DNA of 7,016 nt from a virus (Duplodnaviria > Heunggongvirae > Uroviricota > Caudoviricetes). Of this stretch, positions 1 to 7,016 are shown piece by piece. The notes beneath the pieces were generated by a model. It was given only the letters and a program-made list of their open reading frames with translations, did no database searches and was not told the origin of the DNA. Location: the IMG/VR virus record IMGVR_UViG_2724679058_000006, one strand, 5' to 3'. The position numbers were made by a program, and so were the translations under genes. Positions within the stretch are counted from its first letter, which is position 1. Each line of letters begins with the position of its first letter.

Positions 1-311
1 GGATACGGAGGACGGTTGTGGCGCACGTCTTCGGTGAACGCACTCTGGCCACACTGGAGCGTCTTCTGAGCCTGCTGTCGGCCTTTGAGGTCGTGGTATG
101 GATGACGGATGGCTGGCCGCTGTATGAATCCCGCCTGAAGGGAAAGCTGCACGTAATCAGCAAGCGTTACACTCAGCGCATTGAGCGACATAACCTGAAT
201 CTGAGACAACATCTGGCAAGGCTGGGACGGAAGTCACTGTCGTTCTCAAAATCGGTGGAGCTGCATGACAAAGTCATCGGGCATTATCTGAACATAAAAC
301 ACTATCAGTAA
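1..311 (+). CDS. insB: IS1 transposase InsB, C-terminal portion (5' partial; reading frame enters the window at position 3)
   Basis: Open frame from the window edge to TAA at 309..311. The GTG at 18 is an internal Val, not a start. Translation matches the InsB C-terminus from memory. Confidence 0.85.
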
Positions 312-347: not shown

Positions 348-1097
348 TCAGTCAATTGTTTTGTTTATTCCATCTGTGACGCCGATTATTTTCTCAAAAT
401 AATGAGATGGCGTGACACCATAATAATCTTTAAATGCACATATGAAATATGAAGTACTGTTATAGCCACATTTCTGGGCTACGACATTGATAGAATAAGA
501 GTTTGAAGTTATGAGTTTTTTTGCATACCTCATCCTAGTATCTCTCAATATTTCAGTAAATGACGTTCCTTCATCCCTTAATCTTTTTTTTATTAAACTT
601 TCACTCGTATAAATCAATTCCGCAATATCTTTTAAATGCCATTGCCGCTCAATATTAAAACTGATTATTCCAGTAATTTTACAGGTAAATGTATTTATAT
701 TTGTTAGTATAAATGAATTTACACTTTCGCGTTTTTTGAACATGGCAAGTAAGGATATACATAGTCTTTCTTTTAACCAAAGGGAGTGTGAGTCTGCTAT
801 TTTAATCCCTTCAAACAGAGAAAAAACAAGCGATAATGGAGGTTCCTCTTCAGCAATATAGCCATTCTTATCAAGAGTAAATTTGCCAGGCAGCTCATTA
901 TTCACGTCGATAAAAAAGGATAAACATGTTTTCTTATCTATATCAACAATTCTTAGTTTAGAGGGGCATACTGGTAACTCCCTTCTAATTTTGTCGCTTA
1001 CAATAAACAATGAATTTTTTTTGAACGAGATAACTCTCCTGTTTATAATTAAATCAAATGATTGACAGATGAAAACTACGGAGCAAACATAATCCAT
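348..1097 (-). CDS. appY: AraC/XylS-family transcriptional activator, AppY-like (249 aa)
   Basis: 249-aa ORF with a C-terminal AraC-type double helix-turn-helix (..[62 protein letters not shown]..). RBS AGGTG 4 nt upstream of the ATG. Low-GC gene next to prophage tail genes and a long AT-rich upstream region. The sequence matches my recollection of E. coli AppY starting [14 protein letters not shown]; this is not verifiable without a search. Confidence 0.75.
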
Positions 1098-1670
1098 CTT
1101 GCACCTATCATAAAATTAAAACAAGTTGATAGCAGTCAAATAACAACCAATTAAATACACAATCATAATCAGGATGATGTGCATTTATATTTTTATACAC
1201 AAAATTATAGTTTGCAAATTTTAATAAATTTCATTTAAGATTAAATTATTATATGTATATTGTTTTTTATTCTAACGTATTTCAAAGTTACATTTTTCAA
1301 CGCTTACTATACTTTTTATTAACATAAACTCACTACAACGCACCTGAAACCTCTTGCTATATATATGTCAACCGTTTGAATTTAAAATAAAAAGAGTATC
1401 ATTTTTACTTGCATTTCTTATCAAGTCACATTCAACAACAGTAAAAAAACATTATTAGAACCATTCAATTAACAAAAAACCAACATCCAGCTTGCTTAAT
1501 TTTTCTTTATTAAACGACATTGAAAATCAATTGATAAAATACATCTAAACAACCTTTTGGGGCGCAAAAGCATAACATCAAACAAACAAATAACACACCG
1601 AAAAAACTCACAATTAATAACCTATGATATACATACTGTTTATTATGGTTGAATAAGCCACTCGATATCT
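1098..1670. promoter_or_regulatory. Long AT-rich upstream/leader region of the AraC-family gene; probable xenogeneic-silencing (H-NS-type) target carrying the regulator's promoter(s)
   Basis: About 570 bp with no credible ORF on either strand and a very high A+T content with many A/T tracts, lying directly upstream of the minus-strand regulator. No promoter hexamers could be assigned confidently. Confidence 0.4.
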
Positions 1671-1772
1671 GGTGCTACGGAAGTGTCCACACGGTTTAGC
1701 AGCACCCGATACTTTTTCCAGGCTTCCAGCAACGAGTTTTCTTCCTCCGTTGCATATACAGCTCACCTTTTT

Positions 1773-2066
1773 TCACCCACGATTAACCAACAGCCAGACC
1801 AGCAGACACGCCACCACCGGCACAGCAAAATCCATCAGGCTTGCCACATCCCACGCGCGCGGATCAAAACCGCCCCACCACGGCATATTCATTCGCTTGC
1901 CATGCCCGAACATTTCGATCCAGCGATATTCTGCCTAGGTGTGTTCACGCGCAATGAAGAACGTACAACCGGCTATCGCCCCGTAAGCCCAGTTCCCGGT
2001 AAAAAGACCAATCAGTAGCTGCGCAGCCACAGCACAAAGCGCATGAAGGAAAGGTGTTATATCCAT
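1773..2066 (-). pseudogene. Small membrane protein gene (97 codons, two predicted transmembrane helices) interrupted by an in-frame amber codon at codon 44 (plus-strand cta at 1935..1937)
   Basis: Minus-strand ATG at 2064..2066 preceded by AGGA with a 5-nt spacer. Translation: MDITPFLHALCAVAAQLLIGLFTGNWAYGAIAGCTFFIAREHT-TAG-AEYRWIEMFGHGKRMNMPWWGGFDPRAWDVASLMDFAVPVVACLLVWLLVNRG*. Both halves are in the same frame and each contains one hydrophobic helix. The antisense plus-strand ORFs in the track translate to low-complexity Pro/His/Arg-rich sequence. Confidence 0.5.
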
Positions 2067-2079
2067 TTTCATCCTACCC

Positions 2080-2102
2080 AATAAAACGGGGCGCTCGGCC
2101 CC
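2080..2102 (-). terminator. Candidate rho-independent terminator after the S74 fiber gene (minus strand: GGGGCCGAGCGCCCC, then G and TTTTATT)
   Basis: 5-bp all-GC stem (GGGGC/GCCCC) with a 5-nt loop, followed on the minus strand by a U-rich tract. It sits between the stop at 2109..2111 and the next start at 2066. Confidence 0.45.
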
Positions 2103-2108
2103 TTAATA

Positions 2109-3149
2109 TTATTTAGACGCAAGCGCCGCCTCAATTGCAGATAATCTTTGTCTTAATTCTGCGTTTTCTTCTTCCAGTGCTGTTATCCTGTCGTCTGACT
2201 CTCTGGCTACCTGAACAAGCAAACCCGTTACGCCTGAGTAATCAACGGTATAGTATCTTTCTCCCTCTTCTCCATCAGACCCATTGTCCCCGCTCTTGTA
2301 CTTTATTGTGCTACCAACTGATTCAGGGATTGCATTAAGTGCCTCTTGCGCAATAACGCCAGCATAAGGCATACCATTAGACTTGAGACGGTAAGTATAC
2401 CCATTCATTAATCTGATGCGCTCAGTGGCATTATCAATAACCTGAATGTTTTCTTTAAGATCTCTGTCCGACACCTGGTCGAATGATGTAGCCTTGCATG
2501 ACCCGTTTATCTCAAGCTGATAGGTTTTATCTGGGTTCCTTTGTGCATAAAACAAAAAAAGCCCGCCATCATCCCTAATTTCATAAACAACTGGACGACT
2601 GGAATTTCCCCATAATAACGTCGACACACCAGAATACGCCGTACCTTGCGTGTTTAGTGTCATGGTCGACCCGTGATTAGCATATTTGATCTGCAATGAG
2701 TCTGTATTATCAAACTTAATAAGCGCGTTACTTCCCCGCACACCATACGACATGAGACAGTTCCCCATCTTAAGGTAACCATCACTGCCTGGAAAAATTA
2801 AAGTTCCTCCGTAAAGATCACTAAAGTCCCAAAAGATACCTTTTGTCCCGTTATGTGTGACGATCCTCGTCATTGTATCTTTAGTACCATCAATATTTTT
2901 TCTGGTATATATGTCACTATAAGCGTTTTCCGTTTCACCAGTCTTATTTGACAAATGCAGCTTACCGCTGAATATAGTTCCAGTTGTTGGCAATGTTTTT
3001 TGATCATAGATTACATTGCAATAACCATTCCATGTTGTTTTATTGTCTACATAAGATTTTGTTGCGTAGTTTCCTTGATCGGTTTTTAATTTACTAACAT
3101 CCGATTTTAGCGTTTTGATGTCATCAGGAATTACTGTTTTTGTAACCAT
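2109..3149 (-). CDS. Tail fiber/tailspike-like protein (346 aa) with C-terminal peptidase-S74 intramolecular chaperone (autoproteolytic) domain
   Basis: RBS GGAG 7 nt upstream of the ATG at 3147..3149, and only 12 nt downstream of the preceding ORF's stop. The C-terminal ~120 aa (residues ~227-346, nt 2112..2471) carries the S74 hallmarks: SDRDLKENI, then YRLKSNGMPYAGVIAQEALNAIPESV, then YYTVDYSGVTGLLVQVARE, then a terminal coiled coil ITALEEENAELRQRLSAIEAALASK. The N-terminal ~226 aa are Gly/Thr/Asn/Tyr-rich, typical of beta-rich fiber tips. Confidence 0.8.
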   Translation of the reverse strand: MVTKTVIPDDIKTLKSDVSKLKTDQGNYATKSYVDNKTTWNGYCNVIYDQKTLPTTGTIFSGKLHLSNKTGETENAYSDIYTRKNIDGTKDTMTRIVTHNGTKGIFWDFSDLYGGTLIFPGSDGYLKMGNCLMSYGVRGSNALIKFDNTDSLQIKYANHGSTMTLNTQGTAYSGVSTLLWGNSSRPVVYEIRDDGGLFLFYAQRNPDKTYQLEINGSCKATSFDQVSDRDLKENIQVIDNATERIRLMNGYTYRLKSNGMPYAGVIAQEALNAIPESVGSTIKYKSGDNGSDGEEGERYYTVDYSGVTGLLVQVARESDDRITALEEENAELRQRLSAIEAALASK

Positions 3150-3161
3150 TGTCTTACTCCA

Positions 3162-3431
3162 TTAAGCCCATGTCCTTACATGCTGATCTGTCGTAATGAA
3201 AGGCATTAAAGAAGATATGTTTTTACTGCTATCAACAATCCTCATGTTTACGAAAAAACCACCGCGATCAATGCCCGTACATCTTTCGTTTTCTGGCTCC
3301 TCGTAATCAATAATGCAGCCAATAACATCAACAAGAACCCCATTTTCTTCTTCAAGACTGAACAGGCCACTGTCATATACAATTGCGTTAAACTGTTCTC
3401 TGTTATCGAATCGTAATGTTATATCCCGCAT
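3162..3431 (-). CDS. Hypothetical small acidic protein (89 aa), translationally coupled to stf; candidate fiber assembly or adaptor factor
   Basis: Its ATG (3429..3431) overlaps the stf stop codon (3431..3433) in a TAATG arrangement. Its stop lies 12 nt before the next gene's RBS. No motif recognised; function unknown. Confidence 0.55.
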   Translation of the reverse strand: MRDITLRFDNREQFNAIVYDSGLFSLEEENGVLVDVIGCIIDYEEPENERCTGIDRGGFFVNMRIVDSSKNISSLMPFITTDQHVRTWA

Positions 3432-5789
3432 TATACGTATTCCTTAAGCTGCGTATCTGACAATGCTCTGTTCCAGAAACGGAGGTTTTTTATATGACCA
3501 TTAAGGTGTCGTAATCCTGTCGTCGTTTGCCCCCCGATTCGAATCACGGCTGCTTCACGAATATATTTCCATACTGTTTTGGTTTCAGTGCTTATATGCT
3601 TATTTGCAAATGAGCATGTCATGCCGTCAGCCTTAACCCTGAATCCCATAACGAGATCTCTTACTCCGCATGACTCATATACACGCCGGTTAGCCCCGCC
3701 TATATCGCAATACGAATAACCATCCTGACTGATAGTTCCAGAAGAACCAAACCCCATAATAAATGGGCCTCCGGACTGGTGATTTTCTGAATCAATGACA
3801 CGCGGTGCAGCATTATGAGAAATAAACCAGTTTTTATGGACTTCCACCATGAACGTAAAAGGCATGGTATACATATTTTTCATCAGCGGAAATTTACATA
3901 AATCTGATGCACGAGTCGCTGGCTCTGTTGTCGTTATGATAAAGGAAGTTGCACAAGCACCATACTCGAATTGCGGGGTGGTTACTTCTATCCAGTCACC
4001 TGTTGCAAAAGCCCCCACTGCTCTGTCGGCTGCAATTTGCAGCTGCGTACCAACCATTCCCCATTCTGGCAGACATTTCAGTGTTGCCTGAAAATATATC
4101 CATCCACTACCAGGGTCGATTTCAAAGTTTGCTGTTAATAGCTGGGCATTACCACCCGTAATTTGTAGTTCATGAGTCTGTAATGACAAATAGGCGTCAC
4201 AAAGGAAAGTGTATCCTTCCGAGTTATACCGTTCAAAACGGATACGTGCGCGAACATTGAGATCACTTCTTACCCTGAACGACGCGGTAACATACGGACC
4301 TTTACTGTACTGATCATCGCCAGTCACATCTATGCCTTTATTACCAGCAACTGTGCATATATTTCTCCCTGTTGTCGTTCCTGCTATGTCGCTTCCTACT
4401 GTGAAACGTCCATATTTAAACTCAAATTCATCTGTTGATGATGTTACAGATATACCACCGCTTTTATTCCACGCATCAGGATTAAAACTATTTACGAACA
4501 TGTTTGTTCGCTGATTCTCTATCAGCAAACCATATTTTTCAAAACGAGGAACGTTATTCCCTGCCACGGTAATATGCCCGGACTTATCAATATACGTTGC
4601 TGATGAAGCGCGGCTAAATTGGCATATGCCATTAACAGGCATTGTTATTTCATCACTGCCGATGGTTATTGTTTTATAGCCCGGGGCATACCCTGTTATC
4701 GCTTCCAGAGAATCATTCAAGGGTAGCCAGATATCAGGAAGCGGAGGGACTGAAGCAGGATCAGCGGCATCTTCTGCAATCCGGGCTGCATTCTCTGCTC
4801 TTGTTGCGGCTGACGTTGCTTCTATCTCGCTGGCTGCTGCTTTTGTTTCACTCGTCTTTGCGTTAGTTTCACTGGTTTTTGCAGCTTTTTGGCTATTAGC
4901 TGCCGCACTTGCAGAACCAGCTGCGGCACTCTCGCTTTGGGCCGCTGCATCCTGACTGTTTTTTTGCCGCAGTTTCGCTGGCTTTGGCATTCGTTTCGCT
5001 GGTCTTCGCTGCCGTCTGGCTGGACTTTGCGTTAGTTTCACTCGTCTTCGCAGCTTTCTGGCTGTTAGCCGCAGCAGTTGCTGATCCAGCTGCTGAAGTC
5101 GCAGAACCGGCTGCTGCGCTCTCGCTTTCAGCTGCTGCAGCCTGGCTATTTTTCGCCGCAGTTTCACTGGCTTTGGCATTCGTTTCGCTGGTTTTCGCTG
5201 CCGTCTGGCTGGACTTTGCGTTGGTTTCGCTCGTCTTTGCGGCTGTCTCGCTGTTTTTCGCGTTGGTTTCTGATTTTTTGGCTGCTGTCGCGGAGTTTGC
5301 CGATGCAGTCTGCGAGGACGCTGCCGCCTGTGCGCTGTTAGCTGCATTCGTTTCTGAGGTTTTCGCCGCGTTCTTCGATGATGCCGCTGCAGTTTCGGAT
5401 TTCTTTGCCACCGCTGCGCTCTGAGAGGCGGCTTCGGCGTTGCGTGCCGCTTCTTCCACCATTGCCTCAAAACGACGCAATGCCTCCGGCATGACATCAT
5501 CTTCCGTCATGGCACCGAGAAAATCATTCAGCGTACCTGGTCTGGAACCTTCATAGACGGTAATGGTTCCGGCATGTGAAGGCGGAAAACCTTCAACCAG
5601 CAGGGTGACGCTGTACTGGCCATACTCAACATCCATGCTGTAACGCCCGGCTTCATCCGGATTTTCAGAGGCCACCGTGTTCACCAGTACCGTGGTGCTG
5701 TTACGCTTTGCCTTCAGTTGAATAGTGCAGTTCTGTATTGGTTTTCCCGCACCATCTTTCAGCACACCTGAGATTTTTACTGCTGCCAT
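3431..5789 (-). CDS. stf: Side tail fiber protein Stf (~785 aa if contiguous): lambda-Stf-like N-terminus, Ala/Ser/Thr/Lys heptad-repeat shaft, non-lambda C-terminal LamG-like lectin-type domain. The frame is interrupted by a 1-nt insertion in an A7 tract (plus-strand T7 at 4959..4965), so it may be annotated as a pseudogene or as two fragments (4896..5795 and 3431..5500)
   Basis: N-terminus MAAVKISGVLKDGAGKPIQNCTIQLKAKRNSTTV..GRYSMDVEYGQYSV..GFPPSHAGTITVYE matches lambda Stf from memory. GGAG lies 5 nt upstream of the ATG at 5787..5789; the GTG at 5795 used in the ORF track is probably not the start. The two track ORFs (299 aa and 689 aa) are in adjacent frames and overlap. The first ~190 aa of the 689-aa ORF are Arg/Lys/Pro/Gln-rich out-of-frame translation of the repeats. 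Removing one A from the A7 run joins the frames seamlessly and gives ..ASETAAKNSQDAAAQSESAAAGSA.., parallel to the neighbouring repeat copy ..ASETAAKNSQAAAAESESAAAGSA... The C-terminus ..GHIKNLRFWNRALSDTQLKEYV resembles the conserved end of LamG_3/concanavalin-like domains. Confidence 0.8.
4881..5240. repeat. Imperfect tandem duplication (about 169 bp and 191 bp copies) inside stf; part of a longer low-complexity region (~4760..5405) encoding 7-residue Ala/Ser/Thr/Lys repeats (AAKTSET / NAKSSQT / NAKASET ...)
   Basis: Direct comparison of 4881..5049 with 5050..5240: shared blocks gcagcttt[t/c]tggct[a/g]ttagc ... gccgcagtttc[g/a]ctggctttggcattcgtttcgctggt[c/t]ttcgctgccgtctggctggactttgcgtt[a/g]gtttc[a/g]ctcgtctt. 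Copy 1 lacks ~21 bp present in copy 2 and has one extra T in its T-run. Confidence 0.7.
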
Positions 5790-5799
5790 ATCCACTCCA

Positions 5800-5853: not shown

Positions 5854-6453
5854 TCAGAATTTATAACCGACACCCACGATGAAACCGTCAGTGCGCCAGT
5901 CGCCACTGCCGGAGCCTTCATAAGCAATATCAATGGCCACGGATTCGGTCGGGTTAAACTGCACGCCAGCTCCCCACGCCAGAGACGTGTTGCTGTGGCG
6001 ATCGTCATCACTTCCGGTCAGCACATCGTGCGTTTTCCCCTTGTTGTCAGTTACGCGGAGATAATCCCCGGAGAACGTCGAAACACGGCTGTAAGCCACA
6101 CCTGCCATCGCATAAGCACTGAACCATTCATTCACGCGTACAGATGGCCCCGCCATCATGCTGAACCAGCGGTTACGCACTGAATCTTCATGCCAGCGGG
6201 TATCGCTGTAATGCGTTTTTTGCTCATCTTTGGCATTGGCATAACTGAATGACGTCACCAGCCCCAGCGTGTCCGTAAATTCATAACGGTATTTCACGTT
6301 AATGCCCTTCAGGTCATCACTGCCTGGCATATCAGTATAGGTCTGAAGATACCCGGCGCTTAGTGTGGACTGATGCTCTGCTGCGCTCGCTGGCGTACCA
6401 GCGGCAACCAGCCAGACTACTGCGGACAGAATAACAGCACATAATTTACGCAT
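5854..6453 (-). CDS. lom: Lom-like outer membrane protein (Ail/Lom/PagC family beta-barrel), 199 aa with signal peptide
   Basis: N-terminal signal peptide MRKLCAVILSAVVWLVAAGTPASA. C-terminus ..IDIAYEGSGSGDWRTDGFIVGVGYKF is identical in character to lambda Lom as recalled. KGINVKYRYE and AYAMAGVA motifs are shared with lambda Lom. RBS GAGAGG upstream of the ATG at 6451..6453. Confidence 0.9.
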   Translation of the reverse strand: MRKLCAVILSAVVWLVAAGTPASAAEHQSTLSAGYLQTYTDMPGSDDLKGINVKYRYEFTDTLGLVTSFSYANAKDEQKTHYSDTRWHEDSVRNRWFSMMAGPSVRVNEWFSAYAMAGVAYSRVSTFSGDYLRVTDNKGKTHDVLTGSDDDRHSNTSLAWGAGVQFNPTESVAIDIAYEGSGSGDWRTDGFIVGVGYKF

Positions 6454-6520: not shown

Positions 6521-7016
6521 TCAGCTGATACTGATGCCTGCGGTGGCTTTCTTCATCACCACAACCAGCAAATCGCTGATACTTGCTGTGGGATACCAGC
6601 CATTTACCAGCCATGCCGATACAGAAAATTCCAGTGTCATGACACCACTGCCTGCAGGCATATCAATAACACCCGTATATATCAGCGTATTATCCAGAGC
6701 CGTTCGGTTATAAATTTCAGCACCGTTTTTTCGTACTATCAGACGGCATGAGGAGTAGATATCAGTATGATCTTGCTCATGTTTAGCGCCACTGAATGCC
6801 ACCGCCGGGATAACAATTTGCCGGTCAAACGGCTGATCGTCATAAACCCTGACGGTAATGGTTCCTGATGGCCACCGCTCCGGTGCACGGGAGTCCCGGG
6901 GGAAAGCTTTGCCCACCGTTTTAACGAGATCGCCTTCAATCTGGTTCGCGGACAGTTTTCCCAGAACCCGGCAGTTCTCGTTAATCGTGACGTTGTTGAG
7001 CGTCCCGGAGTTCGCA
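6521..7016 (-). CDS. J: Tail tip host-specificity protein J (central tail fiber), C-terminal 165 codons; gene continues beyond the right edge of the window
   Basis: The frame is open to the window edge. Translation ..[151 protein letters not shown] matches the lambda J C-terminus from memory. The GTG at 6916 used by the ORF track is an internal Val. Confidence 0.9.

Follow-up and report, generated by a model that had tools for sequence, protein, structure and literature searches.

A short fibre gene with an S74 chaperone in an E. coli lambdoid prophage: a candidate distal subunit of a two-part side fibre

How does a short phage fibre, a third of which is predicted to be cut away after folding, come to sit on the virion when it carries no obvious attachment domain of its own? 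The question is posed by ORF346, a reading frame of 346 aa that begins with ATG and occupies positions 2109-3149 on the minus strand of the 7,016-nucleotide stretch of DNA analysed here (the window). The window forms the right-hand end of a lambdoid prophage, located in E. coli at the DLP12/appY site. The answer that we favour, and to which we attach reasonable though far from full confidence, is that ORF346 encodes the distal or branch subunit of a two-part side fibre, which matures by S74 self-cleavage and plugs into the end of Stf by its N-terminus. On this model, the S74 chaperone (residues 227-346) of the 38-kDa precursor would trimerise the protein and fold the beta-structure upstream of it. 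The chaperone would then remove itself at the Val226/Ser227 bond, with Ser227 activated by Lys232, and its loss would expose the tip of a 25-kDa mature trimer. This trimer would be mounted on the far end of Stf and not directly on the tail, with a conserved N-terminal peptide and a short coiled coil acting as the plug and the LamG-like C-terminal domain of Stf as the socket. ORF89, encoded between the two, would be a folding or capping partner of the LamG-like end or else a part of the joint. We infer the attachment step from gene order, from co-occurrence and from the homologous gp22-gp23-gp24 cassette of phage IrisVonRoten.

The identity of the gene is the simplest part of the problem. PHROG 4563 ('tail fiber protein') covers ORF346 over its full length (1-346/346, E 4.9e-200), and the coordinates and all three peptide strings quoted in a preliminary description of the window are found as given in the translation. 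We take the product to be the precursor of a short distal side-fibre subunit, with a calculated mass of 38.3 kDa for the whole chain, 25.1 kDa for residues 1-226 and 13.2 kDa for residues 227-346, the last of these in agreement with the fragment of ~13 kDa that had been expected. The gene starts 12 nt past the stop of ORF89 and is served by a GGAG Shine-Dalgarno sequence at 3157-3160, nine bases before the ATG. Seven nucleotides beyond its stop begins a GC-rich, terminator-like hairpin found by a consensus scan (GGGGCCGAGCGCCCC with a T-run; 2088-2102, minus strand), which closes the gene cassette described below. Its stem consists of five GC pairs without mismatch (GGGGC...GCCCC) and is flanked by T-rich tails on either strand, and this hairpin is likely to be a bidirectional terminator at the end of the cassette. 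ORF346-type proteins form a large family in public data. At a coverage of at least 80%, 610 of the 5426 complete E. coli genomes contain such a gene (~11%, roughly one in nine), and among the matches listed every row is an intact 'tail fiber domain-containing protein'. The protein itself is ordinary, already catalogued both as PHROG 4563 and under this RefSeq name.

If the tip gene is intact, the fibre on which it would be mounted is not, a circumstance that the preliminary description had missed. In the window, a 1-nt insertion in a run of seven A (4959-4965, minus strand) divides stf into two frames, as becomes apparent when it is aligned with the stf of the lambdoid phage PhiR55_1, which is intact and ~98% identical; where PhiR55_1 has GCGGCGAAAAACAG, the window has GCGGCAAAAAAACAG. 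Positions 1-277 of PHROG 1419 match the N-terminal frame of stf and positions 272-793 the other frame. The frameshift parts the phage_tail_N anchor from the C-terminal socket: the N-terminal ORF (4896-5795, minus strand), with phage_tail_N (PF08400, E 4.7e-67) and AAKTSETNAK repeats, ends prematurely and is marked as a pseudogene in RefSeq, where the C-terminal half is a separate CDS of 659 aa whose own N-terminus is an out-of-frame read-through of the same repeats. Programmed frameshifting at this run was considered and set aside, the intact PhiR55_1 allele being without the extra base and mutation being the simpler reading. Because stf is broken by the insertion, display of ORF346 is improbable here, and the protein, intact as it is, is probably not mounted on the particles of this strain.

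One might go further and regard ORF346 as an inert leftover of a decaying prophage end, intact by chance and without a current role, an alternative that we consider unlikely but by no means negligible. The state of the neighbourhood lends it some colour: besides the frameshift in stf, the next downstream gene, an ORF of a 97-aa type (1773-2066, minus strand), is disrupted by an in-frame stop at codon 44, the tail fibre assembly gene tfa is reduced to a fragment (1643-1753, minus strand), and an IS1 fragment with the C-terminal part of the transposase InsB (18-311, plus strand) lies nearby, all of this in the DLP12/appY region, with appY itself at 348-1097 (minus strand). However, neither ORF346 nor its Shine-Dalgarno sequence or terminator is damaged, the annotation gives the head and tail genes upstream as complete, and intact members of the family persist in ~11% of complete E. 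coli genomes as well as in lytic phages. Upstream of stf, the window holds lom (5854-6453) and the C-terminus of J (6521-6916), both on the minus strand. Note that the leftover alternative concerns present function in this strain and not the identity of the protein, and as such is compatible with the two-part side fibre that we propose.

Some further properties of this prophage end are worth recording. An intact copy of the 97-aa protein, a predicted membrane protein with no Pfam family, follows the cassette in PhiR55_1, and a gene of ~95 aa occupies the same position in the phages ev243 and PEC41; it may be a moron or an exclusion gene. The window is 100% identical to strain EC11 and, from position 327 on, also to 44 further complete genomes. 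That only EC11 matches from base 1 and the other genomes from base 327 points to an IS1 insertion adjoining appY in EC11. Between appY and the prophage remnants, the stretch at ~1000-1500 is very AT-rich (25-30% GC), compared with 40-57% GC in the fibre genes.

What, then, might ORF346 be attached to where stf is whole? ORF346 is not an orphan but the third gene of a cassette that is exchanged among unrelated E. coli phages, in which a proximal fibre of ~600-800 aa with a LamG-like end is followed by a protein of ~90 aa and a short S74 fibre. In the window, the first place is taken by the C-terminal part of stf (3431-4972, minus strand), the putative socket for ORF346, which is recognised by NCBIfam NF048003 (48.3 bits; cut-off 36) and comprises a PDIWLPLND junction, a region like the GTA head-spike fibre and the LamG-like end, where Laminin_G_3 scores 21 bits, below threshold. 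The second place is taken by ORF89 (3162-3431, minus strand; ~90 aa, PHROG 1361), whose start codon shares one base with the stop codon of stf. The same cassette is present in Nonagvirus JenP1 (Queuovirinae), where the ORF346 orthologue is 93% identical, in the Seuratvirus VogelGryff, in a T1-like contig of 50 kb, in the lambdoid phages PhiR55_1 and PEC41, both of which have an intact stf, on a plasmid of 106 kb and, as gp22-gp23-gp24, in the T5-like Tequintavirus IrisVonRoten. The similarity to the last of these extends to the proposed socket, with 48% identity between the C-termini of Stf and gp22 over 499 aligned residues (E 6e-169), and to the middle protein, ORF89 and gp23 being 33% identical over their full length and aligning with 8-14 invariant columns. 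PhiR11_1 is a further relative with an intact cassette. About 200 sequenced phages have the cassette in common and, judged by sequence, it is conserved across at least four unrelated tail types.

For IrisVonRoten, the BASEL study predicts that gp24 is attached to the proximal fibre gp22, the end of which is a galectin-like domain; the small protein gp23 and the N-terminal motif are absent from its discussion (PMC11990801). In the literature that we searched, there was no description of an ORF89-type middle protein or of an N-terminal docking peptide, nothing on a three-gene cassette in connection with the branching of lambdoid Stf, and nothing relevant on the virion proteomics of JenP1-type phages or on ECOR temperate phages.

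Two sets of loci bear on how the members of the cassette depend on one another, namely 63 ORF89 loci (58 from IMG/VR and five reference loci) and 33 matches in IMG/VR to a degenerate DNA pattern that encodes the N-terminal motif of ORF346; note that many members of both sets are near-identical E. coli prophages and that the independent lineages number about five or six. In each of the 63 ORF89 loci, the gene upstream of ORF89 encodes a fibre that ends in HLxGH[IV][KR]N.R.W. What comes after ORF89 is less uniform: a protein that starts with the motif in 40 loci, no such protein in 16 and the end of the contig in the remaining seven. Phage records tell the same story, with the ORF89 family in 207 of them and the LamG-like fibre end in 205, and with the same taxon breakdown. 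(The Stf C-terminus used as a single query retrieves near-identical prophages alone, and the counts of phage records are thus taken from tblastn searches of phages.) The distribution of ORF89 thus follows that of the proximal fibre end, not that of the distal fibre. ORF89 is found without a fibre of the adaptor-motif type in a clade of ~53-kb phages, in the lambdoid phage ev243 and in Vequintavirinae such as EmilHeitz, and may for this reason be unconnected with the docking of ORF346.

As to what ORF89 does, the family has no Pfam or NCBIfam model, and structure prediction yields a beta-alpha-beta-beta-alpha-beta unit of the generic ferredoxin-like kind, for which no match was informative. From sequence and context, ORF89 could serve the fibre end as its own chaperone or cap, or it could belong to the joint as a structural component. 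The family is broad, with at least 277 clusters at 90% identity. It extends to rV5-like myoviruses, where a 110-aa version is encoded (loci L128, 4193-4525, and L129, 3678-3956), and is also found in phages that lack any distal S74 fibre.

The other half of the proposed joint is the N-terminus of ORF346. Residues 1-15 (MVTKTVIPDDIKTLK; 3105-3149, minus strand) form a conserved element that, given its conservation and gene context, we regard as a candidate docking peptide, of the form MVTKTVIPxDIxxLK, for the Stf end or for its ORF89 partner. The preliminary description had noted that nothing in ORF346 resembles the N-terminal attachment domain of Stf. This is correct insofar as PF08400 is absent from ORF346 and sits in the separate N-terminal stf ORF (4896-5795); it is incomplete insofar as the conserved peptide is there instead. 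In the AlphaFold (AF2) monomer model the peptide is poorly predicted (pLDDT ~45-54), and residues 9-27 (3069-3125, minus strand) are a helix of low pLDDT. An alignment of ORF346 homologues contains a variable number of heptad-like, 7-residue repeats after the motif, and residues 9-27 are probably a short trimeric coiled-coil stalk whose length differs among homologues.

The motif is conserved out of proportion to what follows it. Homologues that are 36-42% identical overall are 66-73% identical over residues 1-20 and 50-96% identical over the S74 domain, compared with 2-46% over the body. The comparison with IrisVonRoten gp24 is the most extreme: similarity is limited to the S74 domain and the first 17 residues, of which 12 are identical, including all of the first eight. 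Bodies of at least seven kinds (227/234, 231, 330/340, 338, 346, 384 and 574-586 aa) are headed by the motif. The motif has the variants MVTKTVIP, MATVTNIP and MAKTITNIP. Conversely, the same tip and S74 module is also found behind other N-terminal anchors, for example one that begins MIYTTGTIAINGNTVTG, including a virion anchor of the T1/Dhillonvirus type, and we therefore regard the first ~15-30 residues as an exchangeable attachment module.

Two kinds of variant on the cassette may be described here. At locus L063 (514-6282), a proximal fibre of 1325 aa with a T1/Dhillonvirus-type N-terminal anchor, which starts with an N-terminus of the MIYTTGTIAINGNTVTG type, is followed by an ORF89 homologue of 88 aa and then by an S74 fibre of 500 aa that begins with MSITTEGKVTAEKG in place of the usual motif; this N-terminus may fit the same socket as a plug of a second type. 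Elsewhere, the third gene behind ORF89 is an alternative of 227-234 aa, as in PhiR55_1 (L005, 6283-6966) and at the IMG/VR loci L007, L008, L012, L026-L028, L030-L032 and L034. This shorter fibre has the usual N-terminal motif and a heptad-rich helix, with S74 from residue 109 on, and its predicted mature part would be ~108 aa.

An arrangement of this kind might also arise if ORF346 were an independent short fibre, attached directly to the tail tip (to J or some other tail protein), with neither Stf nor ORF89 as intermediary. Short S74 fibres that are attached directly to the baseplate do exist in other phages, gp114 of ManiWeber being a case in point (PMC11990801), the proposed contact between ORF346 and Stf is drawn from gene context, and ORF89 can occur without an ORF346-type fibre. 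Two observations nonetheless make this alternative improbable in our view. First, the same two genes lie upstream in lambda-like, T1-like, T5-like and Queuovirinae phages; tail tips differ among these phages, so the cassette is the only constant partner. Second, the N-terminal motif is never found apart from an ORF89-family gene in IMG/VR, all 33 matches being located 13-16 nt downstream of one. Returning to the plug-and-socket attachment to Stf, we suggest, more tentatively and at rather less than even odds, that it is general: the motif x-T-x-T-x-I-P-x-D-I-x-x-L-K, the LamG-like end and ORF89 may together form a universal joint for swapping distal fibres, with ORF89 as its adaptor or chaperone.

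The opposite end of ORF346 is better charted. An S74 domain had been proposed at the C-terminus, and Pfam Peptidase_S74 (PF13884) does match residues 227-278 with 47.4 bits (E 2.3e-12; profile positions 1-57 of 58), well above the gathering cut-off of 22 bits. The intramolecular chaperone domain as a whole spans residues 227-346 (2112-2471, minus strand; 13.2 kDa). In the AF2 monomer model (mean pLDDT 70.5), the part after residue 227 has an S74-type fold, in which a mixed alpha-beta unit is followed by a long terminal helix (304-345). The reference is the T5 fibre pb1, in which cleavage takes place between Thr1263 and Ser1264, Lys1269 activates Ser1264, and the receptor-binding tip is masked by the chaperone until the chaperone departs (PMC4690869). 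The stretch S227-D-R-D-L-K232 of ORF346 has the same Ser/Lys(+5) spacing as Ser1264 and Lys1269 (PMC4690869). By this spacing, the predicted scissile bond is Val226/Ser227 (2469-2474, minus strand), and the predicted general base is Lys232 (2454-2456, minus strand), five residues past Ser227. Across 72 homologues, S227, D228, R229, L231 and K232 are at least 90% conserved, so that Ser227, the residue named earlier as the likely site of cleavage, stands with its lysine partner alongside. We regard self-cleavage at Val226/Ser227 as a well-founded prediction from family membership and motif conservation. R185 and E190 of ORF346 are also invariant or nearly so, though spaced unlike T5 Arg1250 and Asp1239, residues of the neighbouring chain that sense correct folding of the trimer; the model of ORF346 covers a single chain.

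Between stalk and chaperone lies a variable, beta-rich body or tip (residues 28-226; 2472-3068, minus strand), delimited by alignment and the AF2 model and the candidate receptor-binding part. The model places strands at residues 58-118 and 151-214. Among close homologues, variability is greatest in the blocks 41-50, 71-80, 91-100 and 191-220, the last of which adjoins the predicted cleavage site, a pattern that fits a binding tip. Residues ~165-222 (2484-2657, minus strand), the best-predicted region of the model (pLDDT ~88-92), contain a repeat of the T4 gp34 type, WG..R..V.E....FY.Q.N......NG. This repeat becomes visible when the family profile is compared with PDB sequences (5nxh/5nxf/4uxe, E 7e-10 to 6e-9); a single-sequence PDB search gave just a marginal match to S16 gp37. 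Upstream of the chaperone, no sequence or fold likeness to the 'bullet' domain of T5 pb1 (PDB 4UW7/4UW8) was found.

The preliminary description had allowed for a glycan-degrading tip. This part of its proposal finds no support: a Pfam search with residues 1-226 gave nothing even at E<=10, fold searches with the mature part gave no significant match and none to any hydrolase or lyase, and the sole detectable similarity is to the T4 gp34 fibre repeat. We accordingly consider it very improbable that mature ORF346 is an enzyme, endosialidase-like or some other depolymerase, since the label 'putative endosialidase-like protein' on the JenP1 orthologue was probably taken over from the title of the Pfam domain, 'Chaperone of endosialidase', whereas the empty Pfam and fold searches speak against catalysis and 226 residues that already include a coiled coil and a gp34-type repeat leave little space for a beta-helix or propeller catalytic domain. 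The role of the body (~28-226) is most probably to bind a surface glycan and not to degrade it.

How does the proposed fibre compare with systems that are already understood? T5 pb1 resembles ORF346 in its S74-type C-terminal chaperone and in a serine nucleophile with a lysine five residues downstream. Cleavage unmasks the receptor-binding tip of pb1, which binds O-antigen reversibly and has no enzymatic activity. Yet pb1 is one chain of 1396 aa with its own N-terminal tail anchor, whereas ORF346 is a separate chain of 346 aa. IrisVonRoten comes closer in architecture: its homologous cassette is predicted to form a proximal-plus-distal fibre (PMC11990801), and gp24 starts with MVTKTVIPxDI and ends in S74, as judged by a Pfam match. 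It differs in that gp24 has 574 aa and two receptor-binding domains ('T-shaped'), in contrast to the single small body of ORF346, which is unrelated in sequence, and in that IrisVonRoten is a virulent T5-like phage whereas the element that hosts ORF346 is a lambdoid prophage. A second fibre that is borne by the first instead of by the tail is also seen in DT57C, where LtfA and LtfB each recognise a different O-antigen; there, however, LtfB docks onto an internal region of LtfA through an N-terminus like that of phiEco32 gp15, and no ORF89-type protein is described (PMC4728585, PMC10713586).

The remaining comparisons concern single modules. The chaperones of K1F endosialidase (3GW6) and of MyRF (ICA; 7DC3) differ in their cargo, which is a triple beta-helix/sialidase or a transcription factor stalk. 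T4 gp34 (5NXH, 4UXE) has the repeat WG..R..VfEvg....FYsQrN.dg...nG in common with ORF346 residues ~165-222, but there the repeat is a shaft element within a fibre of 1289 aa, whereas in ORF346 no further folded unit stands between it and the cleavage site. In S16, gp37 (6F45) is a fibre subunit that likewise ends in an S74-type chaperone, a likeness detected weakly, but a separate adhesin, gp38, binds the tip that cleavage exposes, and no adhesin gene follows ORF346. A gp38-like adhesin on the cleaved ORF346 tip was considered and rejected on these grounds, the downstream ORF being a disrupted membrane-protein gene.

What is new here is modest. S74 chaperones and two-part lateral fibres are both already known, and the novelty lies in the conserved plug, its socket and the partnership with ORF89. 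The frameshift in stf adds a caution, in that an intact tip gene does not guarantee a working fibre. If the joint is real, unrelated siphoviruses, be they lambda-like, T1-like, T5-like or Queuovirinae, would exchange distal receptor-binding fibres as single-gene cassettes, and in ORF89 the joint would have a structural adaptor, or a chaperone of its own, that had gone unrecognised. Host range could then be reprogrammed through one small gene behind a constant socket, which would make for a compact engineering handle. Should the joint work as we suggest, it would also explain how O-antigen specificity is traded between lambdoid prophages and virulent phages.
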